Of a DNA stretch of 64,000 nt, positions 2,733-40,658 are shown piece by piece (positions within the stretch are counted from its first letter, which is position 1; each line of letters starts with the position of its first letter). The DNA is taken from IMG/VR virus record IMGVR_UViG_3300028841_000107; one strand, written 5' to 3'. This DNA comes from a virus. The notes beneath the pieces were generated by a model that was not told the DNA's origin, searched no databases, and saw only the letters and a program-made list of their open reading frames with translations. Both the position numbers and the translations under genes were made by a program.

Positions 2733-2747
2733 CGCCGGAGGAAACCG

Positions 2748-3803: not shown

Positions 3804-3812
3804 GGAGGCACT

Positions 3813-4550: not shown

Positions 4551-4562
4551 AGGAGATGGCCG

Positions 4563-4826
4563 ATGGGACAGGACGGCGGCGGTGGCGGCGGGACCAACGT
4601 TCAGGCGGACATCGGGCTCAGCAAGTCCGACCAGGAGGACGTGGATCTCGCGAAGCTCATGGAGGAGCGGCGGAAGAAGCGCGAGGCTGACGCCGCCCGC
4701 TACAACCTCGGGCCCCAGCTCTGGCCGGGCGGCACCGGAGGCGAAGCGACTCCGACGATGGGCTTCGACACGACGAGCGAATCGGCTCCCGGGCCGATGG
4801 CGACGAAAGAGCGGAAGTGGTGGTGA
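4563..4826 (+). CDS. Small Gly-rich/charged protein, 87 aa
   Basis: GAGGAG SD. Reads MGQDGGGGGGTN..., has a charged helix KLMEERRKKREADAARY and a C-terminal MGFDTT that echoes the N-terminus of the 3813 gene. Confidence 0.6.
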   Translation: MGQDGGGGGGTNVQADIGLSKSDQEDVDLAKLMEERRKKREADAARYNLGPQLWPGGTGGEATPTMGFDTTSESAPGPMATKERKWW

Positions 4827-4827
4827 C

Positions 4828-5310
4828 GTGAGGATCCGGATCTTCCAGCAGGGGGACATGGCCGAGATCGAGCGTCTCGCGGATGCCGCACGGGCAGTCC
4901 ACAAGGCGAAGACCGGCCGGGACCTCTACTGCGCGCACCCGAACGACCCGGCGAATAGCTTCACCCTCGTGGCGGTGGACGAGGACGGGCGGATCGCCGC
5001 GGCGGCGACGGCTCGGCACGCCGTTGAGGCGTTCCTCCTGCCCGACCCCGACTGGCGGGAGCCGGAGGACCGCTGGGCCCTCGTCCAGGCGCTTCTGCAG
5101 GAGGGCGGAGAGCGGTGCCGGGCGCTCGGGATCCGCGAGCTCTACTGCCCGACGACGTCCCTTCGCTTCGCCAAGCGGCTTATGACCCTCCCGGGGGCGC
5201 ACGGTGACCCGCGCCCCCACGTCATCTTCTACCTGAACGAGCGGGCGCCCGGGGCGGCACCACCGGATCCGGGCAACCGGCTCCTCGTGCCACTCGAGGC
5301 GATCGCGTAG
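4828..5310 (+). CDS. Possible GNAT-like fold protein, 160 aa (function tentative)
   Basis: GTG 4828 lies two nt after the upstream stop (alternative ATG 4858); in-frame tail of track ORF 4201..5310. ALVQALLQEGGERCRALGIRELY...RFAKRL resembles the GNAT motif A/B region, but the Q/RxxGxG/A loop is not evident. Confidence 0.4.
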   Translation: MRIRIFQQGDMAEIERLADAARAVHKAKTGRDLYCAHPNDPANSFTLVAVDEDGRIAAAATARHAVEAFLLPDPDWREPEDRWALVQALLQEGGERCRALGIRELYCPTTSLRFAKRLMTLPGAHGDPRPHVIFYLNERAPGAAPPDPGNRLLVPLEAIA

Positions 5311-5320
5311 GGAGGCCACC

Positions 5321-7264: not shown

Positions 7265-7273
7265 GAGGCCAGC

Positions 7274-8581
7274 ATGTCCGGATTCGGCGACTTCGGCACC
7301 TTCGGCTTCGATGACGCGGACGCGCAGGAGGATCCGTTCGGCATCGCCGCGAGTCAGCGGGAGACGCAGTGGTGGACGCCGTACGGTGCGCGAGCAAAGA
7401 AGAAGAAGGTGTCCCTCGGCGCCTTCGGCGGGGGCGGCGGTGGCGGCCGGCAGACCCAGACGCAGGGGTCCTACTACGACCCGAATCTGGCCGGGCCAGA
7501 CCCGGGCTACGGCACGCCGAACCCGTCCAGTACGCAGCGCGCAATCCTCGACCAGAAGCAGCGGGAGGAGGACGCGGTCCGGATCTTCGGCGGCGCCACC
7601 CCGCGGGACACGGGGGCCGGAGACGACTTCGATCTCGGCGGCGGAGGCGTGCTGAAGTACCAGGCGCCGGACCCGACCAACCCGGGCCAGCAGGACCAGG
7701 CGCGTGCAGCGACGGTGGACAACGCGATGCTGGACGAGTTCCGGGCGGACGAGAAGCGAGCGAAAGAGCTGGAAGACGCGGCGATGGCGCTTCCGGCGAG
7801 GACCGGGATCACCTGGGGTGGAGCCGGGACCGGGTCGATTGAGATGAAGCGGAACAAGTACCTGCAGGACGCTCAGATCCTGCGGGCGCGGAACGCCTAC
7901 AGGCGAGCGAGCCTGATGGGCGGTGCCGGGGGCTACGACCCGAACCGCTACAAGACGGTCGGGAACCTGATCTTCGACTCCTCGAAGCGGGAGTACGTGG
8001 TGCCGGACGAGTCCACGCTAGCGGCGATGCACCGGTCGGGCATCACCGCGCGCACCGGACGCTCTACGGCAGCCCAGAAGCCGTTCGCGGTCGGCGACGA
8101 CAACCGACTCGTGCTCCAGGACCCGAACGACCCACAGTCGCTCCTCCCGGTCGGGGACAAGATCCCGGCACAGGGCCCTCCGACGCCTTTCGCCGCTGCC
8201 GGGCAGGACCCGTCCCCGTCGGCAATCAAGCAGGCTACGGCCGCGAAGCCGGCGGCCGTTCAGGCGAAGGAGTACGCGACGGAGCACCCGAAGCCGGGGA
8301 AGGCGCAGAAGGCCGACGACAACGAGCCCGATCCGATCAAGGTGCAGGCCCAGCACAACAACATCGACGCTCGATTCGACCGCAGGCTGGCCGGCGCGCG
8401 ACCGAGCGAAGCCGCCAAGATCGAAGAGGAGCGGAAGAAGGCCCACGAGGACGCCGATCGGCGAATGGGCGGTTCTGGGGGCGGAGACGGGGATAATGAC
8501 CCCGTGCTGAAGACGGCGACGGACCCCAAGACCGGCAAGAAGATCGGCTACCGCAAGAAGCGCGGGTGGGGGCCGCTCTAA
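7274..8581 (+). CDS. Low-complexity/charged virion-block protein, 435 aa
   Basis: TAGGAGG SD. Reads MSGFGDFGTFGFDD..., with a GGGGGGG run, a basic patch AKKKKV and a Lys/Glu-rich C-terminus. Confidence 0.7.
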   Translation: MSGFGDFGTFGFDDADAQEDPFGIAASQRETQWWTPYGARAKKKKVSLGAFGGGGGGGRQTQTQGSYYDPNLAGPDPGYGTPNPSSTQRAILDQKQREEDAVRIFGGATPRDTGAGDDFDLGGGGVLKYQAPDPTNPGQQDQARAATVDNAMLDEFRADEKRAKELEDAAMALPARTGITWGGAGTGSIEMKRNKYLQDAQILRARNAYRRASLMGGAGGYDPNRYKTVGNLIFDSSKREYVVPDESTLAAMHRSGITARTGRSTAAQKPFAVGDDNRLVLQDPNDPQSLLPVGDKIPAQGPPTPFAAAGQDPSPSAIKQATAAKPAAVQAKEYATEHPKPGKAQKADDNEPDPIKVQAQHNNIDARFDRRLAGARPSEAAKIEEERKKAHEDADRRMGGSGGGDGDNDPVLKTATDPKTGKKIGYRKKRGWGPL

Positions 8582-11500
8582 GTGGACGGGATCCCGGCCC
8601 CTCCGGGAGGCTACGTCCTCGACGACGACATCCCGCCGCCCCCTGACGGGTTCGAGCTGGACGACAGCTTTCGCGCGACGGCGAGGAAGCGACTCGCCGT
8701 GCTCGGCGGGCGGCCGGAGAGCGAAAAGGCCGATTTCGCTCCCGAACCCGTAATCCCGCGTAATTCCACCGCAATTCAGCCCGTAATTCGGGAGGAGCCG
8801 GTAGCACCGGCCAGGCGTGGGCCGAGCTTTGCGGACGCCATCATGACGCCGGAGCTTCAGCGAGCAGCGGGGCGGATCGGGGCGCCCGCCATGGAGGCCC
8901 CCGAGATCACGGCGGCGACGCAGGGGATTCGCGACCGACGGGCGGCCGGGGCCCAGCGGCGGGAGAAGTACCTCGCCCCGCTGGCGGCCGTCGGGAGCGA
9001 GATGTTCGGCGGGGCCGGAGAGATGGCTCCGGATGCCACCCCCGTGCGTCGCGGCGTCCCTCTCTTCGCCGGGAAGGCCATCGGCGAGGCTCCGGTCACA
9101 CGACGCGCTCCAGGGGTCGGAGACGTGGCATTGGGCGCCATCGCCTCCTCGCCCCCGGTGGAGAGGCTGAAGAGCGACTACGAGCGCGTCCACGGGTGGG
9201 CGCAAGGGGCCTCTGACGACCTCGGGAAGTGGGCGACGAAGAACACCGAGCACTCCTCGCTCGCCCGGCTGATCGACGCTGGAGAGCAGAGCGACTCGAA
9301 GATCGTCCAGACCGCCGCAGCGATCACCCAGGGCGCCGCGCAGGCGGGTGCATCCTCGCTCCCGGCACTGGCCGAATTCGGGCTCCTCCATCGCGCGACT
9401 CCCGGGGCCATGAAGCCGCTCGTGGACGCCGCGCTGGTCTCCTACTTCGGCGGGGAGGGCGTCGGCGGGCTCGCTCAGGACGTTCCAGCCATCGCCAGCG
9501 AGATGAACTCGGAGACTCCTCCGCTCTCCTTCGATGAGCGGGCGAACCTCTACGGAAAGACCGTCATGGACGCGCTGATGGGCGCGGCTCCGTTCGGAGC
9601 GCGTCGCCACATCGCGGACTCGCTCGAAGCGCGGCGGGCTCCGCTGGAGGTGGGCGAGCCTGGGGCCCGCGTCTACCAGCCGGAGTACGGCGAGGCCGGG
9701 CCGCCCGTCTTCCGGGCGCCCGAGGACGTCATGGCGAAGGCGCGGGGGTTGATCTCCCCGCTCATCGAGCCCCGGCTGGGCGAGTACCGGCCGGACCTTG
9801 CTCCTCCCCCCGCTCGCGGAAACGGCGCCTACGCTCGCGACATCGTCCCGCCCGAGCCCGGCCCGAAGCAGGTATCCCCCGAGGAAGCGCAGGCGGTCCT
9901 CGACCGGCTCCTCGGCGGGCAGGTCGAGGGGCAGCGGATGGGGCCGTTCCCCGTCCCGCCCGACATCAGCCAGGGACGCACCCTCCCGCCCGGCCCGGCT
10001 CTCCCCGAGGGTGCGACGTGGCAGGAGCGCCAGGCAGCGGCACGTCGGCAGCCGTCGCCGGCTCCTCCTCCAGAGCCGCCCCCATCGCGGCCGAGGTACG
10101 CCCCGCCAGAGGTGCCACCTGACGCGACGTGGCAGCAGGCCCAGGCGACCGAGCGCGCGAAGCCGGCGAATCCGCTGGAGGACCCGGAGAAGCTCCGCGA
10201 GATCCTATCGAACCTGCTCGGTCCTGAGCCGCCGCAGGGCGTCGAGGCGCGCACCGGGCGCACCCCGCCCGCCGCCGAGAACATCCAGCCCGAGCCCAAG
10301 GCGACCCTCGACGCCCAGATGCAGGCCCTCGTGGAGGGGCGGAAGCCGGCCGTCCTCTTCCCCCGCCAGGGCGAGCACGCCGTTCCCGTGACGCCGGATG
10401 GCTTCGTCCGGGTGGACACGCCTGCCGGCGCGGTCATCTTCGACCCGAACAAGGTGGACGCGGGGGCCGTGGCGAAGGCGGCAGACTCCGGCCAGGGCCT
10501 CGGGAAGATCCTCGGGATGGGCGTGGACGAGCGGCCGGAGGGCGCGCAGACGGTCGTCACCGCTCGGACGCCAGAGGGGGTCGAGGTCCAGAGCGCGCAG
10601 GCGACGCCGGAGCAGGTTCCGGCGGCGGTGGAGGCGGCCCAGAAGGTCGCCGGGCCGGAAGGCCGGGTGACACAGGGCTCGACGGCGGACATCGTCGCCG
10701 AGCGGCAGGCCGGGATGGAGAGCGAAAAGGCCGATGTCGCTCCCCAGGTCGCGAAGGCCATCTACGGGCCGGATGCGCTGCCGGGGTCCGTCGAGTTCGT
10801 CCGGCGGGTCCTCGGGGGCGACGTCCCACCGAAGGCCGCTCCGAAGGTCGTCGCCCGGATCCGATTGGAGGCGAAGAAAGCGGCAAAGGCCGCCCCCCCG
10901 GTAGAGCGCCGAGTCGAGGACAAGGGCCCGGAGGGGCGCATCCATTTCGTTGACGTAGGCCAGATCGCCTCCGACTACAAGCTTCGCGAGCTGCGCAAGC
11001 TCAACGAAGCGATGGACAGCGCCGACGAAGCGCGTAGGATTTCCGAGAGGGAGGCGATTGATGCAGTCAGCCGAGCAAGGGCCGCCGAGATCCTCGCCCC
11101 AGAGCATGCCGAGTTCGCAGCTCGACGAGAGACTAGAGGACTACCTGGCGGAGGTGAGGGAGCACGCGGGCCTGCCGCCGAGGGAGAGAGGCTACCGGGA
11201 TCCGTCGCTGACGCAGTCACCGCAGGCCCCGCAGAAGCCGCTGGCACGTCCAAGTCTCAACTACCGCCCGCCGCCGAGCCGGTAGCTGGCGCCACGCCGG
11301 TCTCGTGGGCGGAAGCGAAGGAGATTCGCTCCACCCAGGAAATGATCCGGATTACTGCCGAGGTGGAGCCCGCCACGGCAGAGCGGCTCCTTCGGCGAGT
11401 CGCGGACTCACCCACGCAGCCGGAGGCCGCGAAAGCATGGGCGCGACGCCAACTCGCGCTCGATCCGGCGCAGCGCTTCAGGCCGGAGGGTAAGTCCGGC

Positions 11501-14500
11501 CCCACGTCAGGGGTTGGCGTCGTCCAGGAGGGCGACAAGACGTGGCTGGACATGCGCGGCCGGCCCGAAGAGAAGTCGCCGGTTCCTGGGCCGCCTAGCG
11601 GCGCTCCGGCTGCTGGGGCCGGGGCGGCTTCGTCCCGGCGGCGCTCGACCATCTGGGTCAAGCCGGACCAGCCCATCGAGGTCGAGCATCAGATCGTGGA
11701 GGCTGGCGATGTCGTCCCCTCGCACGACGCCGAGGGACGTATCGACCCACGCTACCCGCAGAAAGAGGGGCTGCAGCCGCGCGACAGGAGCCGCGACGAG
11801 TCGATTCGACAGATCACGGCGATGTCGCGAAACTTGAACCCGGACTTGCTCGGCGAGAGCCTCGACGCCACGACGGGGGCGCCTGTGGTGACCGACGCGG
11901 CCGATGGCGGGCTTCATCCTGTCGAGTCCGGGAACGGCCGGGCCGCTGCGATCAGAGAGGCGTACCGGACTGGTCGTGCCGGAGCCTACCGCGAGCGTCT
12001 TGAGGCGGACGCGGCGCGGTACGGGATGACTCCGGAGCAGGTCGCCGCCATGCGGGAGCCGATGCTGGTCCGCAGCAGGGTCACCGAGATGACCCCGGAG
12101 GAGCAGCGGCAGTTCACGCGGGACGCGAATGCTTCCTCGGCGCTCCGAATGGGGGCGGCCGAGCAGGCGACGAGCGACGCCGCGGCGCTGACGCCCGAGA
12201 TCCTCGCGGACTTCCTGCCGAGCGAAGAGGGCGACGTGCTCGCGGCGTCCAACCGCCGCTTCCTCCGCCGCTTCTTCGACGAGGTCGTCCCCGAGACCGA
12301 TCGCGGCGAGCTCATCGACGCTGACGGGAACCCGAACCTGCGGGCGGTGCAGCGCATCAAGGCCGCCATCATGGGGAAGGCGTACGGCCAGGACCGGCTC
12401 CTGGCGCGTGCCCTGGAGGCGGCGGACGACAACACGAGGACCGTGTCGAACGGACTGCTCTCGGCGGCGCCCCGCGTGGCGAAAGTGCGGGCCGCGATCG
12501 AAGCGGGCGACCTGCACCCGGTGGACTTCCTCGCCCCCATCAAGGAGGCGGTCGATCACCTCTACTCGGCCAAGGACATGAAGCTGTCGGTGCCCGACTA
12601 CCTGGCCCAGCGGGACATGTTCGCTGGCGAGATGTCGCCCGAAGGGAGCGCGCTCCTGTCCTTCATGGACAAGAACAAGCGGTCCGCCAAGAAGATCGGC
12701 GGCATGGTGGACGCCATCGCCCGCGCTGTCGAAGGAGCCGGGCACCCGGGCCAGGCCGACCTGTTCGGAGGAGAAGTCGATGTCCCACGAGTCGCCGAAA
12801 TCTACGATGCCGCCAAGCGGATCTACGAAGCCCGACACGAGGAAACCACCAGCGCCCAGACCGGACTCTTCGATCAGGCCGGAGGTGGTGGACCGGATCG
12901 TGGAGAGGGCCCTGGCGCAGGCCCGGCAGGAGGAGGGGGAGCCGGTGGAGACGGAGCCCCCCGCGTCTTCGCCTACTCCAGCGGCACCGGCCGCGGCGTC
13001 GGCCGCGACCCGTACGCCGAGCGCACCGGCCGCCAGAAGGTCCCAGTACCGTCCTTCAAGCGACTCCCCCGTACTCCCGCGGTACCGCCCCCCGACGGTC
13101 CACTAGAGCCGGAACGGTACGACAGTCCGAGCGGGGCTCCGCGCCAGGCCACGATGGCGGGCCCAGGCGAGAAGGCCGAGACGAACCCGCGGGAGATCGT
13201 GAAGGCGCTCGAGGACGTGAGCGGGACCCCGATTCGCTACGGGCACGGCTACTTCGGCCCCAGGCGGGCACTCGGCTGGTTCGACCCGCGCAACAACGCG
13301 ATCCGAACGAAGGTCGCCGAGGACATGGTCACTGCCGCCCACGAGGCGGGGCACTCGCTGCACCAGTTTGCGCTCAAGGATCGTCAGGCGTTCCCGGCCG
13401 CTGTGGCGATCGAACTGACGCGCCTCGGGAAAGACCTCTACGGGAGCCGAATGCCGGCGGGTGGCTATCTCAGAGAGGGGATGGCGGAGTACGTCGGCAA
13501 GTACCTGATCGGCGATGACATGGCGAAAGAGGCCCCGGCGCTGCACAAGTGGGTGCGCGACAACATGCCGCCAGAGAAACTCGGCGGGCTCGATTCGGCC
13601 CGCGAGCTGTACCGCAAGTGGGACGAGGCCGGCGCCGTCGGGCGCGTCAAGGGGAAGATCCACACGGTCGAGTCTGGCCCGGTGGCGCAGCTCAAGGACG
13701 GCATCGAAAAGCTGACGCACTTCTTTAGCCGACAGATGTGGGTGAACAAGTTCGCGCCGCTGGAGGACGCCGTCGGCCGCGTCATGAAGGAACACGGCCT
13801 CGTGCTTGAGCCCACGAAGAATCCAGCCTTCGTCGCCGCCGCGCTCGAGAAGAACGCACCAGGCACCGCCCGCACGTTCATCTTCAACGCGGCCGTCAAC
13901 ACCAAGGGCGATGTCGTCGGCGGGTCGCTCGCCGACGCGCTCAAGGAGATCCCGCACAAGGAGCTGCCCGACCTGATGGCGTACTCCTACGCGCGCCGGG
14001 CCGAGGATCTCTGGGAGCGTGGAATCAACCCCGGCATCACGCTCGCCGACGCGCAAGCGACGGTGAAGCAGCTGGAGAGCCCGCAGCGTCGCGCCGCGCT
14101 GGACGCGATGACGAAGTGGAGCAACTACCTGATCGACTACGTGGTGGAATCCGGAGGGCTCACGGCCGCTGAGGCTAAGGTCATCCGCGCCGCCAACCCC
14201 GTGTACGTCCCGCTCAAGAGGTACTTCGACGAGGTCGAGCGTGGCGGGGGCGGCGGCGCTAGAGCGGGATTCGTGAATCAGGGGAAGGGTGTTCAGAAGA
14301 TTCGCGGCTCGGGGCGCTCCGTCATCAACCCGCTCGACTCGTTCATCCGACAGGCCGACAGCATGGTCAGGCTCGGCAACAAGCTCCGCGTTGGGCGCTC
14401 CATCGCTGATATGGTCACGGAGAACCCCGGCCTCGCCTGGTTCGCGCAGAAGGTGGAGTCTCCCAAGGAGTCCACCGAGTTCAGCGTCAGGGAGTTGAAG

Positions 14501-16300
14501 CGCCAGCTTGAGAAGGCCGGCGCGGACCTCAGCGCGGCCGACCTGGACGCGACCCTCACGGTGTTCCAGAACGCAGGCGAATACCGTGGGCGCCAGAACA
14601 TCGTCTCGATCGCGCGCAACGGGCAGCGCGAGTTCTGGGAGCTCGACCCCGACGTCTATCGAGTCGTCACGCACATGGACCACGAGGTGCTCCCGTCGTA
14701 CCTCTCCGCCCTGGCGGCCCCGAAGCGCCTCGTCCAGCTCGGGGCGACCGGTGTCAACGCCGGGTTCTCGCTGATCGCAAACCCGATCCGCGACGCGTTC
14801 ACCTGGGCCGTGTATTCCAAGGGGCGACACCTGACGCCCGCCGACGCTCTCGTCGGCCTCTGGTCCGGCCTCTCGAAGTCGCCGGAGGCGCAGCGGTGGC
14901 GTGCGCTCGGCGGAGAGCTCTCTACCCTCATGGGCCAGGACCGCATCGCCGCCGGCCGGGCCGTCGAGGAGGCGCTGGCCCGCACCGGCAAAGAAAAGGC
15001 GTGGATCACGCTTCGCCACCCGATCGACGCCCTGCGTGAGCATCTCGGCGTCTTCGAGTCTGGGCCACGTATCGCAGAGTTCACGCGGGTGCTCGAGCAG
15101 GCCGAGCAGAAGTGGGGGAAGGGCACCGAGAACGCCTACCTGGAAGCACTCCTCGCCTCGAAGGAGGCTACGGTCAACTTCACCCGGGCCGGTGTGATCG
15201 GCCAGGCGCTCAACCAGCTGATCCCTTTCTTCAACGCCAAGATCCAGGGCGCGTCGAAGTTCTACCGCACGTTCGGTGGCTCCGAGGGGAAGGCCGCGGC
15301 GCTGAAAGCGACCGCGCAGGCGGTCTCGTGGATCACGGTCCCGACCGCACTCCTCTGGTACGCCAACAAGGACGAGGAGTGGTACAAGGAGCTCAAGTCG
15401 TGGGAGAAGGGGGCCTTCTGGGTCTGGTCCACGGATCACGGGAAGACGAAGTACCGGATCCCGAAGCCGCAGGAGCTGGGGTACATCTTCGGAAGCGTGC
15501 CCGAAGCCTTCCTCGACTACGCCTACCGGAAGAACGGTCGTGGCGTGTCCGACGCCATGTGGGGGACGCTCGATTCCCTCATGCCGTTCGGCCTCTCGCA
15601 GGGCGCGGCCGGCGTCGCTGACGTGCTACCGGCTGCCATCAAGCCGATGATCGAGGCCGGGCTGAACTACGACACGTTCAAGAACCGGCCGATCGTGGAC
15701 CCGTTCATGGAAAGGCGGAAGCTCCCCCGCGACCAGTACCAGCGGTACACGACGGAGATCGCGAAGCAGCTCGGCGCCTGGCTCAACATCAGCCCCTCGA
15801 AGATCGACCACACGGTCTCCGGCTACACCGGGGGGCTCGGGCTCGATCTTGCCCGCGGCGTCGAGCTCGCTACGGGGATGCGGAAGATGAAGGACATCGA
15901 GGGGCTCGAGGATGTTCCTGTCCTCGGGCGTCTCGGCGTGAGGGCGACCCCCGGCGTCTCCGTGGACCACATGCACGAGCAGGACGCGCTCCTCCGCCAG
16001 AAGGTCGGCTCCAAGGTGGCGACCGAGGAGGAGAAGGCGACCCTCAAGCGGATCGCAGCCGCCAAGACCGCCATCGACCACGCCAGGATCGCCGCCGAGG
16101 GGGCGAAGGGCGACGACCTCCACACCCTGAACACCTGGAGCACGCACATGGCGCAGTGGGCCCTCGGGAAGCGCGCTGAGATGCCGGAGGAGGAACTGGA
16201 GTCGCTCGAGGAGAAGTTCCCGTCCGAGGAGTGGGGGAAGGCGTTCAAGGCGATGCGCCGGAAGATCCCGACGTACGAGGCGGAAGCGCCGCCGGAGTAG
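8582..16300 (+). CDS. Giant polyvalent-type virion/ejection protein, 2572 aa, with ParB/Srx-like domain and HExxH zincin-like motif
   Basis: Single uninterrupted ORF, GTG directly after the upstream TAA. Near nt 11675-12200 it reads ...IVEAGDVVPSHDAEG...LQPRDRSR...ESGNGRAAAIREAY..., matching the ParB-superfamily domain I recall from phage/plasmid polyvalent proteins. HEAGH occurs at nt 13340-13354. The N-terminal third is Pro/Ala-rich. Confidence 0.8.
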   Translation: MDGIPAPPGGYVLDDDIPPPPDGFELDDSFRATARKRLAVLGGRPESEKADFAPEPVIPRNSTAIQPVIREEPVAPARRGPSFADAIMTPELQRAAGRIGAPAMEAPEITAATQGIRDRRAAGAQRREKYLAPLAAVGSEMFGGAGEMAPDATPVRRGVPLFAGKAIGEAPVTRRAPGVGDVALGAIASSPPVERLKSDYERVHGWAQGASDDLGKWATKNTEHSSLARLIDAGEQSDSKIVQTAAAITQGAAQAGASSLPALAEFGLLHRATPGAMKPLVDAALVSYFGGEGVGGLAQDVPAIASEMNSETPPLSFDERANLYGKTVMDALMGAAPFGARRHIADSLEARRAPLEVGEPGARVYQPEYGEAGPPVFRAPEDVMAKARGLISPLIEPRLGEYRPDLAPPPARGNGAYARDIVPPEPGPKQVSPEEAQAVLDRLLGGQVEGQRMGPFPVPPDISQGRTLPPGPALPEGATWQERQAAARRQPSPAPPPEPPPSRPRYAPPEVPPDATWQQAQATERAKPANPLEDPEKLREILSNLLGPEPPQGVEARTGRTPPAAENIQPEPKATLDAQMQALVEGRKPAVLFPRQGEHAVPVTPDGFVRVDTPAGAVIFDPNKVDAGAVAKAADSGQGLGKILGMGVDERPEGAQTVVTARTPEGVEVQSAQATPEQVPAAVEAAQKVAGPEGRVTQGSTADIVAERQAGMESEKADVAPQVAKAIYGPDALPGSVEFVRRVLGGDVPPKAAPKVVARIRLEAKKAAKAAPPVERRVEDKGPEGRIHFVDVGQIASDYKLRELRKLNEAMDSADEARRISEREAIDAVSRARAAEILAPEHAEFAARRETRGLPGGGEGARGPAAEGERLPGSVADAVTAGPAEAAGTSKSQLPPAAEPVAGATPVSWAEAKEIRSTQEMIRITAEVEPATAERLLRRVADSPTQPEAAKAWARRQLALDPAQRFRPEGKSGPTSGVGVVQEGDKTWLDMRGRPEEKSPVPGPPSGAPAAGAGAASSRRRSTIWVKPDQPIEVEHQIVEAGDVVPSHDAEGRIDPRYPQKEGLQPRDRSRDESIRQITAMSRNLNPDLLGESLDATTGAPVVTDAADGGLHPVESGNGRAAAIREAYRTGRAGAYRERLEADAARYGMTPEQVAAMREPMLVRSRVTEMTPEEQRQFTRDANASSALRMGAAEQATSDAAALTPEILADFLPSEEGDVLAASNRRFLRRFFDEVVPETDRGELIDADGNPNLRAVQRIKAAIMGKAYGQDRLLARALEAADDNTRTVSNGLLSAAPRVAKVRAAIEAGDLHPVDFLAPIKEAVDHLYSAKDMKLSVPDYLAQRDMFAGEMSPEGSALLSFMDKNKRSAKKIGGMVDAIARAVEGAGHPGQADLFGGEVDVPRVAEIYDAAKRIYEARHEETTSAQTGLFDQAGGGGPDRGEGPGAGPAGGGGAGGDGAPRVFAYSSGTGRGVGRDPYAERTGRQKVPVPSFKRLPRTPAVPPPDGPLEPERYDSPSGAPRQATMAGPGEKAETNPREIVKALEDVSGTPIRYGHGYFGPRRALGWFDPRNNAIRTKVAEDMVTAAHEAGHSLHQFALKDRQAFPAAVAIELTRLGKDLYGSRMPAGGYLREGMAEYVGKYLIGDDMAKEAPALHKWVRDNMPPEKLGGLDSARELYRKWDEAGAVGRVKGKIHTVESGPVAQLKDGIEKLTHFFSRQMWVNKFAPLEDAVGRVMKEHGLVLEPTKNPAFVAAALEKNAPGTARTFIFNAAVNTKGDVVGGSLADALKEIPHKELPDLMAYSYARRAEDLWERGINPGITLADAQATVKQLESPQRRAALDAMTKWSNYLIDYVVESGGLTAAEAKVIRAANPVYVPLKRYFDEVERGGGGGARAGFVNQGKGVQKIRGSGRSVINPLDSFIRQADSMVRLGNKLRVGRSIADMVTENPGLAWFAQKVESPKESTEFSVRELKRQLEKAGADLSAADLDATLTVFQNAGEYRGRQNIVSIARNGQREFWELDPDVYRVVTHMDHEVLPSYLSALAAPKRLVQLGATGVNAGFSLIANPIRDAFTWAVYSKGRHLTPADALVGLWSGLSKSPEAQRWRALGGELSTLMGQDRIAAGRAVEEALARTGKEKAWITLRHPIDALREHLGVFESGPRIAEFTRVLEQAEQKWGKGTENAYLEALLASKEATVNFTRAGVIGQALNQLIPFFNAKIQGASKFYRTFGGSEGKAAALKATAQAVSWITVPTALLWYANKDEEWYKELKSWEKGAFWVWSTDHGKTKYRIPKPQELGYIFGSVPEAFLDYAYRKNGRGVSDAMWGTLDSLMPFGLSQGAAGVADVLPAAIKPMIEAGLNYDTFKNRPIVDPFMERRKLPRDQYQRYTTEIAKQLGAWLNISPSKIDHTVSGYTGGLGLDLARGVELATGMRKMKDIEGLEDVPVLGRLGVRATPGVSVDHMHEQDALLRQKVGSKVATEEEKATLKRIAAAKTAIDHARIAAEGAKGDDLHTLNTWSTHMAQWALGKRAEMPEEELESLEEKFPSEEWGKAFKAMRRKIPTYEAEAPPE

Positions 16301-16860: not shown

Positions 16861-16890
16861 ACGAAAAGGGGCGGCTCGCAACCGCCCCCA
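16861..16890 (-). terminator. Rho-independent terminator candidate at the convergent junction
   Basis: Stem GGGGCGG (16868-16874) / CCGCCCC (16882-16888) with 7-nt loop. On the minus strand it is followed by TTTTCGTTTGTT, i.e. downstream of the vWA gene. There is no T-tract on the plus side. Confidence 0.6.
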
Positions 16891-21149: not shown

Positions 21150-21581
21150 GGGAAGAAAACGCCGGGAGGTTGCCCCCCCGGCGCCGCCCCGTGAGTCTGG
21201 TAGACTCGCGGGTGACTATGCGGTACGTCGAGAGTATCAGAGGTCATCTTCCCCGCGAAGCGGGAAAACTCTCGGCACGGGTTGAGGTTACGCGCGATCT
21301 CCCGGCGGAATTGCGAGCGCGTAGGGGGTGGCTGGGCCACCTCCAGGGGGTGCAGCGGGGAGACCGCTGCATGGTGTACGGGGATGACGGCAAGATTTCG
21401 GGCACCGCGCTGACCGATTGCGACCCGAGACCCGGGACTCTGGTTTTCGCCTTGCTCCCCGAGACACTGCGGACGTCCTGCCCGGGCCTCGGACCCGTGG
21501 CAGACCAGCGCCGGTAGCCCTTCTCCCGCACGGTCAAGAGCGGAGGCACCGCCCGGGACCCCTCCGGGGAAGGAAATCGGT

Positions 21582-22160: not shown

Positions 22161-22493
22161 TCACTTCGGCACCTCGGCACCATCGAGGTACTCGGATTCC
22201 CACGGAGCGATCCTCCGCCCGGCGTCGATGGCGGAGTGGGCGCAGGCCCGCGACCCGGGGGCTATCGCGGACCCGCACGTGTCGCACGTGTAGGCGTCGA
22301 GGGGGAGCGGAACCGGCCGGCCGTTCACCCGGATCTCCCGCTGCGACTTCTTCGGGTGGCGGGCGGTCCCCCAGATGAACCGCTCGAACTCGGCCGGCCC
22401 GTCGGGTCCGGCGGGCGTGACGCGCGTCAGGTTCTCCGGCGAGCGCGATCCGGAGGCGCGCAGGCCGCAGGGCAGGCAGAGAAGCGCCCTCAT
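22161..22493 (-). CDS. Cys-containing protein, 110 aa
   Basis: ATG 22493 abuts the upstream stop. Contains CLPC and CDTC pairs. Confidence 0.5.
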   Translation of the reverse strand: MRALLCLPCGLRASGSRSPENLTRVTPAGPDGPAEFERFIWGTARHPKKSQREIRVNGRPVPLPLDAYTCDTCGSAIAPGSRACAHSAIDAGRRIAPWESEYLDGAEVPK

Positions 22494-22739
22494 TCACATC
22501 TCCTGCGCGGGCGCCGCCCGGCAAATCACGGAGGGGACCGGCGGTGGCTCGAATCCGCCGAGCTTGCTCATGAGGCTGACGAAGACCTTGGCCTCGGCGT
22601 CCACGTCGCCCCCCTTGGCATGGATCAAGAGCGCGGCCACGGCGCCGAAGACAGCCGCTTCCGGGCAGATGGCGCGGAGGATCTCGGTCAACAGGCGCAC
22701 CTCATCGGGGGTAAGGGTGACGGGTTCTCTCGTGCTCAC
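22494..22739 (-). CDS. Hypothetical protein, 81 aa
   Basis: GTG 22739 in a GTGA overlap. Reads VSTREPVTLTPDEVRLLTEILRAICPE...; the upstream part of the track ORF is Arg-rich shadow. Confidence 0.5.
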   Translation of the reverse strand: MSTREPVTLTPDEVRLLTEILRAICPEAAVFGAVAALLIHAKGGDVDAEAKVFVSLMSKLGGFEPPPVPSVICRAAPAQEM

Positions 22740-22924
22740 GACAGCTCCAGCCAGCCCTGGACGACGCGGTCGCCCTGCAACTTCTCGAGGGCAGTGGCGA
22801 GGCTCCGGCAGCGCGCCGCGCGGGCGGGCGTGGCGATCTGCGCGTGTTCTCGCAGGGCGGCGGGGATGATGTCGAGGTCGTCTTCCTCGATCGTGATCTG
22901 GAAGCGGCGGGGTTCGTCGGGCAT
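22736..22924 (-). CDS. Hypothetical acidic protein, 62 aa
   Basis: ATG 22924 preceded by GAAGGAG. Reads MPDEPRRFQITIEEDDLDIIPAALREH... Confidence 0.55.
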   Translation of the reverse strand: MPDEPRRFQITIEEDDLDIIPAALREHAQIATPARAARCRSLATALEKLQGDRVVQGWLELS

Positions 22925-22998
22925 CGGTGGCTCCTTCTCGGGCGGTGGCTCTAACCGCTCGCGGAGGGCGCCCCACGCCGGGCGCCTACCGCCAGGGG

Positions 22999-23361
22999 TC
23001 AGAAGAGTGACGGCTGCGGGTCGTCCTCGCCGCACGGCACCATGCCGTCCAGGTAGGCTCCGCTCTCGATCTCGGCATCCCGCCGAATGGTGCGTTCGAG
23101 CTGGCGCTGCTCGTTCCCCAAGAACTCGTGGATCGCGTCTCTCTCGGCCTCGCTCAGCCCGAACGCCAGGGCGCGGCGCAGTGCCGGCCCGTGCGGCACC
23201 GGGATCGCGATGCACTCGGTCATCCGCACGCCGCCCGGCCCCTCCGCCACCTCGAAGAGCGGCGAACGGAACGGCGGCCAGAGCTCCGGATCGCGGTCGT
23301 AGTCGGTCACGTCGATCCCGTGCTGGGTGTAGCGAACGATCGGGGCGGGCGGCTTCTTCAC
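22999..23361 (-). CDS. Hypothetical protein, 120 aa
   Basis: GTG 23361 in a GTGA overlap with the stop of the pentapeptide gene. Reads [28 protein letters not shown]... Confidence 0.55.
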
Positions 23362-24296
23362 GGGTTGTACTCCTGCGCTTCCTTCATCGTGATGAAGAAG
23401 TGGATCCCGTTGCTGCACTCGATCCGGACGTCATCGTTGAACGAGTCGGGGCGTGTTACCTCGCCGACGATATAGACGAGTCGCTTGAATCCGCAGGACT
23501 CCGCGCGCTCGATCTCGGAGCCGTCGGGCATCCTGATCGCCAGCGTGCGCACGGCCTCCGCCCGGCACTTCCGGCCCACGAGCGAACAGACACGCCGCGC
23601 GTTGTGGAGAATCTCCAGTTTCGCCACAGCGCCGCCGGCCAGCTTCTTGAACCCGATGAACGAGCCCTCTTCGGGAAGAATCCAGAACGAGGGCAGGTCG
23701 GCGCGCGAGAGGTAGGCGCCCGAGAGGTCGGCGCCCGAGAGGTAGGCGCCCGAGAGGTTGGCGCCCGAGAGGTCGGCGCGCGAGAGGTAGGCGCGCGAGA
23801 GGTAGGCGCCCGAGAGGTAGGCGCCCGAGAGGTAGGCGCCCGAGAGGTTGGCGCCCGAGAGGTAGGCGCCCGAGAGGTTGGCGCCCGAGAGGTCGGCGCC
23901 CGAGAGGTAGGCGCCCGAGAGGTTGGCGCCCGAGAGGTTGGCGCCCGAGAGGTCGGCGCGCGAGAGGTAGGCGCGCGAGAGGTAGGCGCCCGAGAGGTTG
24001 GCGCCCGAGAGGTTGGCGCCCGAGAGGTTGGCGCCCGAGAGGTCGGCGCGCGAGAGGTAGGCGCCCGAGAGGTCGGCGCCCGAGAGGTAGGCGCCCGAGA
24101 GGTTGGCGCCCGAGAGGTCGGCGCGCGAGAGGTAGGCGCCCGAGAGGTAGGCGCCCGAGAGGTTGGCGCCCGAGAGGTCGGCGCCCGAGAGGTTGGCGCA
24201 CGCTTTCGCGGCCTCCACCGCCGCGGCCTTAACGGTCGTAGCGGTCTCGCTCCGGTACAGCAGGCCGCCGTCCCATCGGTTATTGATCTCGATCAC
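23358..24296 (-). CDS. Pentapeptide-repeat protein, 312 aa, about 34 idealised A(D/N/Y)LS(G/R) pentads plus a C-terminal globular domain
   Basis: GTG 24296 in a GTGA overlap. Uninterrupted [20 protein letters not shown] run. The C-terminal ~110 aa ends ...[23 protein letters not shown], a GIHFF-type tail I recall from phage pentapeptide proteins (unverified). Confidence 0.85.
23697..24191 (-). repeat. 33 tandem 15-bp units (GT[CAT]GGCGC[GC]CGAGAG on the + strand) encoding the pentapeptide array
   Basis: Direct reading shows that units differ only at two positions, the first bases of the D/N/Y and G/R codons. All three frames on both strands stay open across the array. Confidence 0.95.
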
Positions 24297-24529
24297 TTCT
24301 CGTCTCCTTCTCCCGGGCGGGCGGCCCAGGTTGGCGGGTTGATAGTAACCACACGGCCTCCGTTGAGGGTAGCCAATTTCTCGGCCAGGACGCGACCGCT
24401 GAACTCGGCGAAGTTGAACCTCCTGTTCGGATCGCGGGTCCAGACGTGCGAGGGGGCGAGCCACTCCCCGGCGTCGTTCACGATGACGAGCCAGGGTCGC
24501 GCCGGGGTCTCGGGGCGACGCGCGCTCAT
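24293..24529 (-). CDS. Hypothetical protein, 78 aa
   Basis: ATG 24529 in an ATGA overlap. Reads [30 protein letters not shown]... Confidence 0.55.
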
Positions 24530-24786
24530 TCGCCGTCCCCTTCCCACCCCTCGAACGCGAGATCCCTCATGCTGTCGATGTCGGCGCGCAGATCCTCGCC
24601 CGGCGTGTCGTCGTCGTAGGCGTGTCGGTAGATCCGTTCGAGGAGGTCTTCCAGGTAGTGAATGCGCCCGCGAATGACGGCGACAGTGTTCGGGCTCTCG
24701 ACTCCGAGCTTCGATTCCAGCACCAGCAGGGCCAGGGAACTCTCCTGCTTCGTCACGAACGGGAGACCGCTCGGGCGCGCGCTCAC
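24526..24786 (-). CDS. Hypothetical acidic protein, 86 aa
   Basis: GTG 24786 in a GTGA overlap. Tail of track ORF 24526..25431 ([28 protein letters not shown]...EGWEGDGE). Confidence 0.55.
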
Positions 24787-25466
24787 TTGGCCACCAGCCG
24801 ATCCCGGATCGCGCGGGCGCGGTCCCACACCTCGTTCTCGTGCGGCCCGACGTAGGCGTCCCACTCGATCAGCTCGTTGAGGATGTCGAGGATCTCCTCT
24901 GGCGCGTCGAGAGGCGCAGTGCAGACGGGGCACGCTCCCTCGTGGAGCGGGGCGCCGCAGTCGTCGCACTCGCCCGCACACTCGTCCGTGTGGCCCCCGC
25001 CCTGCCAGCAGAAGCAGCCGGGGAAGCCGAGGTCCCAGACCTCGCCGGTCAGAGTCAGGACGGAGCCGTCCGCGAAGGTGTAGCGCGTCGAGTCGGACTC
25101 GTCCTCGCGGTCGCGTCGGCCGCCGGCCTCGCGGCACACGTCCTCGAGCTGGGCGCCGTCCGGATCCCGGAAGCGCAGGCCGTCGTCCTTGAAGCGGCGC
25201 GAGATCCGCTCGGCCGTCGTCTTCGTGTCGCACTCGCCCGGCCACTCGCAGGCCGTCGAGCCGCAGTTGACGCAGGGGATCTGGGCCTCGGGCGAGGTCT
25301 GGATCTTCACCCGGTCGCAGCCCTCGCACGGCACCGCGTAGGCGTCCACGAACGAGGCGCCGTGGTACTCCACCGCGTGACGGCAGGCGGCGCACAGCTC
25401 GCCGTCGGGTAGCGCCGGGAATGAGCCGCACGAGCGGCAGGAAGGGGCGGGGGTCGAGGTCGTCAT
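24783..25466 (-). CDS. Cys-rich multi-zinc-ribbon-like protein, 227 aa
   Basis: ATG 25466 preceded by GAAGGAG. About 18 Cys by my count, mostly in CxxC pairs (CRSC, CAAC, CEGC, CVNC, CDDC, CPVC). Confidence 0.7.
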   Translation of the reverse strand: MTTSTPAPSCRSCGSFPALPDGELCAACRHAVEYHGASFVDAYAVPCEGCDRVKIQTSPEAQIPCVNCGSTACEWPGECDTKTTAERISRRFKDDGLRFRDPDGAQLEDVCREAGGRRDREDESDSTRYTFADGSVLTLTGEVWDLGFPGCFCWQGGGHTDECAGECDDCGAPLHEGACPVCTAPLDAPEEILDILNELIEWDAYVGPHENEVWDRARAIRDRLVAK

Positions 25467-25484
25467 GGTCTTTTTGCTCCTTCT

Positions 25485-25503
25485 GGAACGCGGGCGGCGC
25501 TCC
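25485..25503 (-). promoter_or_regulatory. GC hairpin with GGGCG(+)/CGCCC(mRNA) pentaloop
   Basis: GGAACGC / GCGCTCC (one A-C mismatch) around loop GGGCG 25492-25496, 18 nt upstream of ATG 25466. Confidence 0.5.
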
Positions 25504-25551
25504 GGGAGTCCGGCGGGGGGATTGGACCCTCGCCGGCTACCCGCAGAGTCG

Positions 25552-25788
25552 CTAGGCGTCCGGGTTCTTCTCCAGAATCGTCCCGACCTTGATAGCGGCG
25601 AGCCCGTAGAGATAGCCACACCGCAGACCGCAGAACATCCCATCCCCGTAATCCCCGCGCCGTCTCTTTTCGATGGGTTCCTTCCGGTCATGCCAGTAGG
25701 CGCGAAGCGTCCGACCGCACCAGCGGCAGGTCCCCGGGAGACAGTCGGCAGCGAACTCGCGCCAGTGTGGGGCGCCGTAGAGCGTCAC
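25552..25788 (-). CDS. Small Cys-containing protein, 78 aa
   Basis: GTG 25788 in a GTGA overlap. Contains CRWC and CGLRC motifs. Confidence 0.5.
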   Translation of the reverse strand: MTLYGAPHWREFAADCLPGTCRWCGRTLRAYWHDRKEPIEKRRRGDYGDGMFCGLRCGYLYGLAAIKVGTILEKNPDA

Positions 25789-26015: not shown

Positions 26016-26288
26016 CTAGTTCACCTGCATCATTTCGTCGGTCGGGTTGACGATCGCCGGCCCAGCCGCTTCGGCCAGAGCCAGCCTCACGAGACGCCGG
26101 GCCACGGCGTAGCGGGCGCGGATGACGGGTACGGAGCCCGGGAGCATCGTCCGGTCCCGGGCCTCCATGCGGTTCAGGGCGCAGTAGGCCAGGGTCCCGG
26201 CATCCGCCCTGCCGCTCTCGAGGAGCCGCGCCGTCTCCGGGAAGCCGAGGGCCGCCAGGCGCGCGAGGGGTGAGGCGGGGCCGGTCAC
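26016..26288 (-). CDS. Hypothetical protein, 90 aa
   Basis: GTG 26288 in a GTGA overlap. Reads VTGPASPLARLAALGFPETARLLESGRADAG... Confidence 0.5.
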   Translation of the reverse strand: MTGPASPLARLAALGFPETARLLESGRADAGTLAYCALNRMEARDRTMLPGSVPVIRARYAVARRLVRLALAEAAGPAIVNPTDEMMQVN

Positions 26289-26743
26289 CGCGTCACCTCG
26301 GCCAGATATACGGCGTTGTGTTCGTAGATAGGCACGCCGCCCGCCTTCTTGATCGCCGTCCGGGCCGCGCCGAGGGTCGCGTGCGCCTGAAAGCCGCCGA
26401 GGTCTTCCAGACACGTCCCGCGCCCGATCCAGTCCGCCGGGTTGAACAGCCGCACGGTGTAGCGCCGCGCGTCCCGCCGCCGGTCGCTCCCCTCGAACTG
26501 CTCCGAGGAGATGAACGCCACACGGCCATCCGGGAGCCGGTTCAAGGTCTGCGACTCGTCCACGCGGCAGCGGAAGAAACGGAACGTGTCGCGGTCCCAC
26601 CAGTGGGACCCGGCGCCCGTCATCACGGCGCGGATGTCGTCCACCGAGTAGAGCTCCGTCCGGGCCGGGTAGTAGGTGCGCGGCTTGTGTCCGCAGGTCG
26701 GGCAGGTCGTGGGGGTGGTGGTGTCGGTCGTGCTCGTGCTCAT
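26285..26743 (-). CDS. Hypothetical protein, 152 aa
   Basis: ATG 26743 preceded by GAGAAGGAAGGG. Thr-rich N-terminus with CPTCG, then a globular-looking sequence. Confidence 0.65.
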   Translation of the reverse strand: MSTSTTDTTTPTTCPTCGHKPRTYYPARTELYSVDDIRAVMTGAGSHWWDRDTFRFFRCRVDESQTLNRLPDGRVAFISSEQFEGSDRRRDARRYTVRLFNPADWIGRGTCLEDLGGFQAHATLGAARTAIKKAGGVPIYEHNAVYLAEVTR

Positions 26744-39484: not shown

Positions 39485-39560
39485 GCCCCCGTAGCTCAGA
39501 CGGCAGAGCCGCCGGCCCGTAACCGGATGGTCGCAGGTTCGACTCCTGTCGGGGGCCCCA
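39485..39560 (+). tRNA. tRNA-Thr (anticodon CGT) with encoded CCA
   Basis: Hand-folded cloverleaf. Acceptor GCCCCCG/CGGGGGC; D stem GCTC/GAGC; anticodon stem GCCGG/CCGGA (first pair G-A); loop CCCGTAA; variable TGGTC; T arm GCAGG-TTCGACT-CCTGT; discriminator C plus CCA. Position 33 reads C, not T. Confidence 0.8.
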
Positions 39561-39592
39561 AGCATCACGCTGCATGCAGAGGTAGAATCTCC

Positions 39593-39628
39593 GTCACGTA
39601 GTGTCACGGCGCGTCACGGCGCGTCACG
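39593..39628 (+). repeat. Four GTCACG direct repeats with exact 10-bp phasing upstream of the initiator-like gene
   Basis: GTCACG at 39593, 39603, 39613 and 39623, ending 11 nt before ATG 39639. Confidence 0.85.
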
Positions 39629-39638
39629 GAGGAAGCGG

Positions 39639-40658
39639 ATGTACTCCCCACTCTTCGCCGCGCTGTACCAGGGAAGCATGTCTGGGAAGTCGGACATGCT
39701 GCTCGTCTGGCCCTGCATCTTGGCCCACGCTGACCCTCGCGGAAACGTGGACCTACACCCTCGCGTGATCGCCGCACTCACCGGCCTGTCGCAGGACCGC
39801 GTGGACGCGGCCATCGCCGAGCTCGAGGCGGACGACCCGGAAAGTCGCACCATGGATCCTGTCTACGGCGGGAAGCGGATGGTCCGCCTTGACGAGACGC
39901 GTCGATGGGGATGGTTCGTCGTCAACCACCTGCTGTACAGGAAGATGGCGTCGCTCGGGGCCGTTCGGGCCCAGGCGGCAGAGCGGCAGGCGAGGAGGCG
40001 CGCCAGGGACAACGACGTCACGCCGGGTCACGGCATGTCACGCACCCGTCACGCACCCGTCACGGCTTTGTCACGCAAGGAAGAGGAGGAGGAAGAGGAG
40101 AAGGAATCTACCCCCCTACCCCCCTTGCAGGGGGGATTTGTTCTGGAGCCCGTGGATCCACCCGCGAAGAAGCCTAGGACGAAGAAGCCGAAAGCCGTCC
40201 CGCTTGTCCCTGCCCCCGGCTTCGAGGAGTTCTGGGCCGGGTTTCCTAGGAAGGAGGGGAAACAGCCGGCGATCGGGGTCTGGAACGAGATGAGCCCCGA
40301 GGATCGCAAGCTCGCTACAGCCGCTGCACCCCGATACGCTGCCCGCCGGGCCGGGCAAGACCCCACCGGGACCAAGATGCCGCAGGGATGGCTGAACGAG
40401 AGGCGCTTCGAGGACGAGGCTAACGGGCCAGTCCCTCTAACCGAGAAGCAGAAATCGCAGCAACCGACGGCCGCACAGGTCGCCGAGTGGGTCCGCATCG
40501 ACGCCATGAAGGCCCAGGAACGCGAGGAGACGCGAGCCGAGTACCGGGCAACGATTGACTCGCTGCCCCCGGAGAAACGCGAACGCCTGCTCAGGGTGAT
40601 CCTCCCGGTTACCGACCCTGAGTTCGCCGCAGAGCTTGCAGAGAAGGGATACCGATGA
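39639..40658 (+). CDS. Replication initiator/organiser-like protein, 339 aa
   Basis: GGAGGAAG SD. N-terminal wHTH-like region; C-terminal FEEFWAGFPRKEGKQPAIGVWNEM...GWLNERRFEDE motif I recall from phage replication-organiser accessory domains. The iteron array lies inside its linker-coding region, as in lambda O. Confidence 0.55.
   Translation: MYSPLFAALYQGSMSGKSDMLLVWPCILAHADPRGNVDLHPRVIAALTGLSQDRVDAAIAELEADDPESRTMDPVYGGKRMVRLDETRRWGWFVVNHLLYRKMASLGAVRAQAAERQARRRARDNDVTPGHGMSRTRHAPVTALSRKEEEEEEEKESTPLPPLQGGFVLEPVDPPAKKPRTKKPKAVPLVPAPGFEEFWAGFPRKEGKQPAIGVWNEMSPEDRKLATAAAPRYAARRAGQDPTGTKMPQGWLNERRFEDEANGPVPLTEKQKSQQPTAAQVAEWVRIDAMKAQEREETRAEYRATIDSLPPEKRERLLRVILPVTDPEFAAELAEKGYR
40018..40076 (+). 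repeat. Six GTCACG iterons inside the initiator gene (candidate ori core)
   Basis: GTCACG at 40018, 40028, 40038, 40049, 40060 and 40071 (spacing 10/10/11/11/11). Immediately followed by the purine tract AAGGAAGAGGAGGAGGAAGAGGAGAAGGAA (poly-Glu codons). Confidence 0.8.

Follow-up and report, generated by a model that had tools for sequence, protein, structure and literature searches.

In this study, we show that a 64,000-nucleotide stretch of viral DNA (IMG/VR record IMGVR_UViG_3300028841_000107; hereafter the window, meaning this whole stretch) carries on its minus strand, at 23358-24296, a gene for a 312-residue protein in which an unusually idealised array of 34 pentapeptide repeats is joined to a conserved C-terminal domain, DUF5758. 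The pentapeptide-repeat/DUF5758 architecture is already known and common, and the window protein is a fresh, unusually idealised member of it and not a new kind of system. Its main interest lies in an evolutionary signature that runs through the whole family and in the unexplored fold of DUF5758. We tentatively favour the explanation that this is a two-part accessory protein for host takeover or counter-defence, in which the rod formed by the array would serve as an evolvable surface for binding or presentation, with DUF5758 as the carrier of the conserved activity. This explanation fits best because a constant C-terminal module is combined with a rod that is quickly rebuilt and re-surfaced at its exposed residues.

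The DUF5758 domain and its family

The gene and the parts of its product are as follows.

23358..24296, minus strand: pentapeptide-repeat/DUF5758 coding sequence, 312 residues, with a GTG start at 24296 and a TGA stop at 23358-23360 (from translation and Pfam)
24198..24296, minus strand: N-terminal cap, residues 1-33, which aligns with the N-termini of homologues and has a predicted helix at residues 19-29
23688..24197, minus strand: pentapeptide array, residues 34-203, made of 33 near-identical 15-bp units (23703-24197) and a terminal ADLPS
23376..23675, minus strand: DUF5758 (PF19062), residues 208-307 (from Pfam, conservation and an AlphaFold model with a predicted local distance difference test score, pLDDT, of 89.8)

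The part of the protein that the family conserves is the DUF5758 domain, a point absent from the sequence-only reading, an earlier account of this DNA made from its letters without database searches. That account had proposed a profile search of the C-terminal domain, and the search found DUF5758 over residues 208-307 of 312 with an expectation value (E) of 2.4e-21 and 76.1 bits against a cut-off of 26.9, spanning profile positions 6-105 of 105. The domain sits at the extreme C-terminus, directly after the array. Among about 150 representatives, the positions conserved at 90% or more correspond to P208, G211, K217, R235, R242, K243, C244, R245, Y275, G278, C294, G297, I298, H299, F300, F301, T303, E306, and A307; the target has all 19 of these, and with them the family motif P-x2-G...K...R...RKCR...Y-x-x-G...C-x2-GIHFF-x-T-x2-EA, while a Pro conserved at 78% is replaced by Leu230. 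When modelled from an 18-sequence alignment, the domain is beta-rich and ends in a short helix (pLDDT 89.8; predicted template modelling score, pTM, 0.84). Because of its invariant basic cluster of Lys and Arg, together with His, Tyr, Glu, and two Cys, the conservation pattern suggests that DUF5758 may bind or process an anionic ligand, or hold a metal site.

NCBIfam holds no model for DUF5758. The fold recurs among predicted viral structures at template modelling (TM) scores of 0.7-0.8, and in proteins of Klosneuvirinae, Mimivirus, and Pithovirus it either stands by itself or is preceded by RING fingers or by repeats of the MORN or pentapeptide kind. Among phages, one protein has it after HEAT repeats, and Acidovorax phage ACP17 has it as four short paralogues. 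As judged from these predicted structures, DUF5758 appears to be a portable C-terminal module that viruses join to different repeat scaffolds.

The family is large, is found in many types of phage and reaches giant viruses, and its conserved domain is without a solved structure. A tblastn search with the C-terminal domain matched 158 deposited phage genomes, each at more than 80% query coverage; 152 were those of Mycobacterium phages (e.g., phage 244, gp59), and the rest came from Synechococcus phages B23 and B3, Ralstonia phage BOESR1, a Rhizobium phage, and a Thiohalocapsa phage. Where the listed matches carry an annotation, the gene almost always bears the name "hypothetical protein" or "pentapeptide repeat protein". 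When 1.84 billion cluster representatives were searched exhaustively with HMMER, 2,896 protein clusters (50% identity) passed E <= 1e-3 and 1,041 passed E <= 1e-10. The domain is almost always at the extreme C-terminus (nearly all of 150 representatives listed). Among the 147 closest representatives, DUF5758 was present in 147/147 and the Pentapeptide family in 130/147, and none had any other non-repeat domain; the full architecture of array and DUF5758 was found at more than 40 IMG/VR loci. A literature search on pentapeptide-repeat proteins in mycobacteriophages found nothing relevant, and phage goes unmentioned in a review of pentapeptide proteins from 2021 (PMC8145042). Tractable members of the family exist in phages of Mycobacterium smegmatis.

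Within this family the window protein stands rather by itself. The exact product was not on record in the look-up, an exact-pattern metagenome scan for the 3' end of the gene gave zero matches, and a protein-guided metagenome scan gave 80 loci, all at 56% identity or less. A search of genome contigs with the full protein returned mostly generic cyanobacterial pentapeptide proteins, few of which matched as far as DUF5758. The nearest relative, contig L164 (Logan SRR32548947, 1,145 bp), retains no more of the gene than its final 248 nt (78% identity), lacking the array and the first third of DUF5758. After this remnant comes, in L164, a stretch homologous to the 3' end of the window gene at 24783-25691, so that gene order differs, and the contig is a mosaic with gene decay. 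No close relative with the array was found, and identity over the C-terminal domain is otherwise about 60% at most.

The pentapeptide array and its predicted structure

With Tandem Repeats Finder, one strong array was found, at 23695-24199 (period 15, 33.7 copies, 93% matches, no indels). In the protein, residues 34-203 are 34 unbroken A-x-L-x-x pentads, and 33 of the 34 units belong to only four types, at the level of both DNA and peptide.

GCCAACCTCTCGGGC, encoding ANLSG, 11 copies
GCCGACCTCTCGGGC, encoding ADLSG, 8 copies
GCCTACCTCTCGGGC, encoding AYLSG, 7 copies
GCCTACCTCTCGCGC, encoding AYLSR, 7 copies

The remaining unit, the 34th, reads ADLPS and is degenerate. In the other 33, the only variable columns are 4 (A/G/T, giving N/D/Y) and 13 (G/C, giving G/R); both change the amino acid, and there are no synonymous differences at all. 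Arg is confined to the AYLSR units. These counts bear out the sequence-only reading as to the number of pentads (about 34, in near-identical 15-bp units) and the restriction of variation to the first bases of the N/D/Y and G/R codons. The ADLSR-type variants that it listed do not occur in register, since SRADL is formed only across unit boundaries. The C-terminal end that it gave must also be corrected, as the protein ends ...EAQEYNP, and although the array that it described is real, the strand is minus.

The units follow one another in aperiodic order. Two exact internal repeats, the longest of 100 bp with its copies 345 bp (23 units) apart and another of 74 bp with its copies 180 bp (12 units) apart, indicate that blocks of several units were duplicated as the array grew; given these repeats, the exact copy number in the window depends on the assembly method. 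In composition the array is 5.3% acidic with a net charge of -2, an isoelectric point (pI) of 4.6 and 14 Tyr at exposed positions, and the whole protein has a pI of 6.18 and a net charge of -1.3.

The Pfam family Pentapeptide (PF00805) matches the array at 3.8e-70 (231 bits against a cut-off of 20.2), and the 34 contiguous pentads are well above the minimum of eight A(D/N)LXX-type pentapeptides in a row that marks this superfamily. In an AlphaFold model of the full protein, built from the single sequence, the array is a regular beta-helix with one strand residue per five positions (block pLDDT 67-92, mostly above 70). Its best match in both sequence and structure is to the synthetic consensus solenoids known as beta1 (phmmer 1.1e-48; Foldseek root-mean-square deviation, rmsd, 0.8 Å over 170 columns at 53% identity), and at 0.8 Å from a designed consensus the window array is among the most idealised of natural beta-solenoids. 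The model also superposes on MfpA (2bm6; rmsd 2.1 Å, TM score normalised to the target, TMt, 0.75, by Foldseek), and NleL and SopA are among its structural matches. The array is thus predicted to be a quadrilateral, right-handed beta-helix in which each coil takes four pentads, so that 34 pentads would make 8.5 coils; MfpA-type proteins have about 8 (PMC8145042). The pentapeptide-repeat beta-helix of about 8.5 coils put forward earlier agrees with the Pfam match, with the model and with the superposition on solved pentapeptide proteins, and "idealised consensus" was a fair description, the best matches being laboratory-designed consensus solenoids.

A diversity-generating retroelement was considered as the source of the variation, prompted by AAC-type codons that vary at adenine, and was rejected. 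The second variable site is G/C, the variation lies among tandem units with no pair of template and variable repeats, and the same pattern recurs through duplication in unrelated phages; no explicit search for a reverse transcriptase was made.

Array evolution across the family

Array length varies widely, from 16 to 56 pentads at the IMG/VR loci with the full architecture and from 4 to 33 (median 13) among cluster representatives, and some family proteins carry only about 3-5. In at least 20 independent lineages the arrays are as uniform as that of the window, with 5-10 unit types and units that are on average 0.87-0.93 identical in pairwise comparison. The consensus that these arrays share is spelled in lineage-specific codons, e.g., GCGAACCTCTCCGGG, GCCAACCTGAGCGGC, and GCTAACCTATCCGGA, with Ser written as TCN or as AGC. 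Since the same consensus is written in different codons, homogenisation must have occurred separately in each lineage, by concerted evolution.

When unit variants were counted among the interior units of 23 uniform arrays, the outward codons (i-1, i+1, and i+2) showed 98 distinct non-synonymous variants and 5 synonymous ones, where a synonymous share of about 0.23 would be expected under equal mutation (binomial P = 3e-7). The two inward codons (Ala and Leu) showed 10 variants in all. The same combination of constant and changing parts is seen at closer range in four related jumbo-phage contigs with 92-96% nucleotide identity, whose proteins are 330, 300, at least 311, and 286 residues long; caps and DUF5758 domains hardly differ among them, and the arrays are set apart by indels in multiples of five residues and by many substitutions. 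Concerted evolution and a variable copy number had been anticipated from the single window array, and at the level of the family the codon spellings, the five-residue indels and the range of 4 to 56 pentads support both. Independent homogenisation, change in five-residue steps and non-synonymous variation at exposed positions make up the pattern expected of a contested interface, and the family is therefore a reasonable candidate for work on host takeover or counter-defence. Because such arrays break short-read assemblies, metagenomes probably yield too few members of the family, and members of the wrong size.

Related arrays were also met beside and outside this family. In L069, L072, L075 (12,056 bp), and L080 (11,876 bp), the open reading frame (ORF) at 3272-4708 belongs to another phage pentapeptide family, whose C-terminal domain (PDLTFIIMGMEYPITITNGEYIRAGCQNH...) is unrelated to DUF5758. 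Contigs of this set that are 99.5% identical differ by 180 bp, or 12 pentads, and at 99.95% identity what separates the contigs is single-residue changes inside the array; the set is a direct copy-number polymorphism of an idealised array. L019 carries at 7866-10276 two tandem pentapeptide/DUF5758 paralogues of 456 and 299 residues, with nearly identical C-terminal domains and differing arrays, and extra pentapeptide paralogues adjoin the gene in five lineages.

The gene, its neighbours and its genomic setting

The signals and genes that immediately flank the target are these.

24304..24309, minus strand: Shine-Dalgarno-like AAGGAG, 7 nt upstream of the GTG, read in the sequence
24293..24547, minus strand: upstream ORF of 84 residues, whose TGA stop overlaps the GTG start of the target (GTGA)
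22999..23361, minus strand: downstream ORF of about 120 residues, with a presumed start at the in-frame GTG at 23361, which overlaps the TGA stop of the target (GTGA)

The start at 24296 is preferred over an upstream GTG at 24464 because of the AAGGAG 7 nt upstream, the GTGA overlap and the similarity to homologues at the N-terminus, where the residues of the 312-residue protein align with homologous N-termini (MIQIKHRW..., MTTDIYDRDGNLLHAS...). The 368-residue ORF in the same frame (23358-24464), which includes the gene, has a guanine-cytosine (GC) fraction of 0.88 at third codon positions. The overlap of the upstream ORF with the target start suggests translational coupling, and the gene appears to be one member of a series of small minus-strand ORFs coupled in translation. 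Neither the upstream nor the downstream ORF had a Pfam or PADLOC match, and the PADLOC defence-system models matched neither the target nor any of eight neighbours. Two further long frames, at 22236-24677 on the plus strand (813 residues) and at 23431-24201 on the minus strand (256 residues), are shadows of the 15-bp repeat and not genes; such frames read through the array as AREVG... and RQPLG... repeats and could mislead automatic gene callers.

The window has a GC content of 68% and is phage-like. A megablast search of 21-27 kb against the INPHARED phages gave no match, and neither did a tblastn search of the 854-residue ORF of the window against deposited phages. The window exonuclease has matches of at most 30%, mostly in phages of actinobacteria such as Gordonia. 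The window is a novel GC-rich phage-like lineage. On the plus strand, 1-16300 holds weak matches to virion proteins and, next to them, a 2,572-residue polyvalent protein (ORF 8582-16300), with a ddrB-like ParB domain (residues 1029-1166, 1.1e-26) and LPD38 (residues 2265-2447, 4.2e-37); large polyvalent proteins are thought to be delivered together with the DNA of mobile elements. Most of the large ORFs, namely those at 5321-7264, 7274-8581, 58250-60814, 61385-62830, and 62850-63998, had no Pfam or PHROG match. Beyond 30 kb the plus strand carries a replication-initiator-like gene, a RecE-like exonuclease, a resolvase, a lytic tail/transglycosylase-like protein, and a threonine transfer RNA, tRNA-Thr(CGT), at 39485-39560, which is followed by three short tandem repeats.

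39592-39629: tandem repeat, 10 bp, 3.8 copies
40037-40064: tandem repeat, 11 bp, 2.5 copies
40077-40106: tandem repeat, 12 bp, 2.5 copies

These lie at the start of, or inside, the replication-initiator-like gene (39639-40658, plus strand, phrog_270) and may be origin iterons.

Small ORFs, most of them matching no family, make up the minus-strand block (about 17-29 kb) that contains the target itself; the exceptions are a helix-turn-helix protein and a DUF7447 protein at 26285-26743 on the minus strand (9.2e-13, also phrog_4655). Terminator-like hairpins are found at 21164-21178 and 16867-16889. In Ralstonia phage BOESR1 (Autographiviridae) the homologue is among small genes upstream of the RNA polymerase, in Mycobacterium phage 244 it is three genes to the right of the repressor, and in Synechococcus phage B23 it lies in a run of small hypothetical genes. 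Across 46 loci, the recurrent neighbours are pentapeptide paralogues, a YqaJ-like exonuclease and an Erf-like annealing protein, the last two labels having been given by eye from sequence motifs, without a library match. The setting of the target is thus non-structural and, by analogy with these homologues, looks early. Of the early phage operon proposed from the letters alone, what holds is a non-structural block that resembles the early regions of the readable homologues; its earliness is a matter of that resemblance.

What the protein may do

In the explanation that we favour, the protein, a member of the pentapeptide-repeat/DUF5758 family, would be a cytoplasmic accessory protein of a phage-like element, probably an early one. 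DUF5758, of about 100 residues, would be its constant functional module, and the beta-helix would be a rigid rod whose length and outward residues change fast. Duplication and deletion of multi-unit blocks would homogenise the rod, with selection keeping amino-acid differences at exposed positions, and as a protein-binding or presenting surface the rod would couple DUF5758 to a variable host factor in early infection. The gene, its architecture and family, the dynamics of the array and the non-structural setting are shown by the present data; the binding, its timing and the target are what we infer. It is rather unlikely, on our estimate, that the arrays go further and are a natural fast-evolving binder scaffold, in which slippage or unequal recombination would rebuild the rod and selection would diversify its surface of Tyr, Asp, Asn, Arg, and Ser, thereby re-aiming DUF5758 at changing targets such as defence proteins. 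If this were true, fast-evolving arrays would be a viral counterpart of repeat-based adaptive binders.

Several points weigh against a two-part accessory protein of this kind. DUF5758 has no relative among solved structures by phmmer, by a 31-sequence profile or by Foldseek (best Foldseek match E 1.4, TM below 0.25), and a literature search for DUF5758 found no papers; with no solved or annotated relative, the activity assigned to the domain is a guess. The excess of non-synonymous variants presumes uniform mutation, and codon-usage selection in GC-rich genomes could be the cause of the synonymous depletion. A scan of the minus-strand block for sigma-70-like promoters found none, clustering of neighbours at the 46 loci found no fixed partner gene, and the fact that L164 keeps only a truncated remnant indicates that the gene is dispensable. 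Moreover, all lengths from 4 to 56 pentads seem to be tolerated, down to proteins with only about 3-5. This last point speaks for the main rival, namely that the array is a passive spacer, a stiff self-folding rod or solubility handle whose length and surface would drift through frequent slippage under weak constraint. Such a spacer is possible though not likely. It would accord with an idealised consensus that maximises the stability of the solenoid, as in the designed beta1 proteins, and with the multi-unit duplications visible in the array; the excess of amino-acid-changing variation at exposed positions nevertheless weighs against it, because drift should leave synonymous variants in proportion and the count is 98 to 5. 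The exposed Tyr, Arg, and Asp would also be typical of interfaces.

According to the sequence-only reading, the protein could be a DNA mimic directed against an enzyme of the host that binds DNA. Such a beta-helix would imitate B-DNA and titrate gyrase, a restriction enzyme or another nuclease, with DUF5758 as a dimerising or anchoring part. The geometry of the predicted rod is indeed like that of MfpA, both in the superposition and in the number of coils, its early-like position is analogous to that of T7 Ocr, and the array is slightly acidic. Since MfpA and QnrB1 are themselves only at -5 and -6, net charge alone does not decide against mimicry. Several findings speak against the proposal, however, and we consider it quite unlikely. 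The protein scores 68.3 bits against a cut-off of 360 for the NCBIfam model of MfpA, 67 against 240 for Qnr, and 50-72 against 450-460 for QnrA/B/S. The topoisomerase-directed proteins MfpA, Qnr, and AlbG act as head-to-head dimers through C-terminal alpha-helices (PMC8145042), and here that dimerisation helix is replaced by the beta-rich DUF5758 domain of about 100 residues with one short terminal helix. In a comparison made from sequence composition, with the MfpA and QnrB1 sequences checked against PDB 2bm4 and 2xtw, the 5.3% of acidic residues in the array stand against 13.7% in MfpA and 12.6% in QnrB1, and 14 Tyr are exposed. Across 128 family arrays net charge ranges from -11 to +10 and is zero or positive in 42, a span of 4-56 pentads is hard to reconcile with the copying of a defined DNA segment, and the part that the family conserves is the basic DUF5758 domain and not the helix. 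It seems highly improbable that the protein is a structural module of the virion, with the beta-helix serving as the rod of a tail fibre or spike. Beta-helices are common in fibres, and there is a weak PHROG tail-fibre match (E = 0.0011), but that match covers the repeats only, the protein is small and without an N-terminal anchor of the fibre type, its gene lies among small non-structural ORFs on the strand opposite the putative virion/polyvalent block at 1-16300, and the homologues are in early or immunity-proximal regions. Scarcely credible, finally, is an assembly artefact or a non-coding tandem repeat with an accidental open frame. Assembly across 505 bp of 15-bp units is difficult, many homologous contigs end within the array, and shadow ORFs cross it in other frames. 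Nevertheless, the frame joins a conserved N-terminal cap to a strongly homologous DUF5758 domain, the order of the units is aperiodic with no exact internal repeat above 100 bp, and the same architecture occurs in finished phage genomes.

Comparison with known systems

With MfpA, Qnr, and AlbG the window protein shares, by prediction, a beta-helix that is right-handed, quadrilateral and about 8 coils long, and its predicted rod superposes on that of MfpA; in contrast to them it fails their family models and has DUF5758 in place of the dimerisation helix. It further lacks the loop insertions of Qnr, and compared with this group its charge density is much lower and its surface is Tyr-rich. The anti-restriction DNA mimics Ocr and ArdA are very acidic, with rows of Asp and Glu placed like phosphates, whereas the window protein, at pI 6.18 and a net charge of -1.3, has no sequence relation to them. 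The type III effectors NleL and SopA resemble it in having an N-terminal beta-helix before a C-terminal functional domain, and they provide a precedent for a helix that binds; however, their C-terminal domain is a HECT E3 ligase unrelated to DUF5758, and they are secreted bacterial effectors that act in eukaryotic cells, so that the likeness is an analogy only. The giant-virus proteins with the DUF5758 fold likewise place it as a terminal domain after repeat scaffolds (TM 0.7-0.8, E down to 3e-8), although their hosts are eukaryotic, the partner repeats are mostly others and sequence identity is 13-35%. The natural array in the window is as idealised as the synthetic beta1 solenoids (PDB 4yei, 5dns, and 4yc5), which are laboratory constructs without DUF5758, and the resemblance reflects a shared consensus, not descent. 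The closest likeness is to the phage family represented by phage 244 gp59, Synechococcus phage B23 gp186, and Ralstonia phage BOESR1 HIBIKMCM_00009, which has the same cap, array and C-terminal DUF5758, the same DUF5758 motif with 38-45% identity over the C-terminal domain, and a non-structural setting. From these homologues the window protein differs in an array that is longer and far more uniform, with 34 pentads in which four unit types predominate, whereas the repeats of phage 244 gp59 are degenerate, with a mean unit identity of 0.50.

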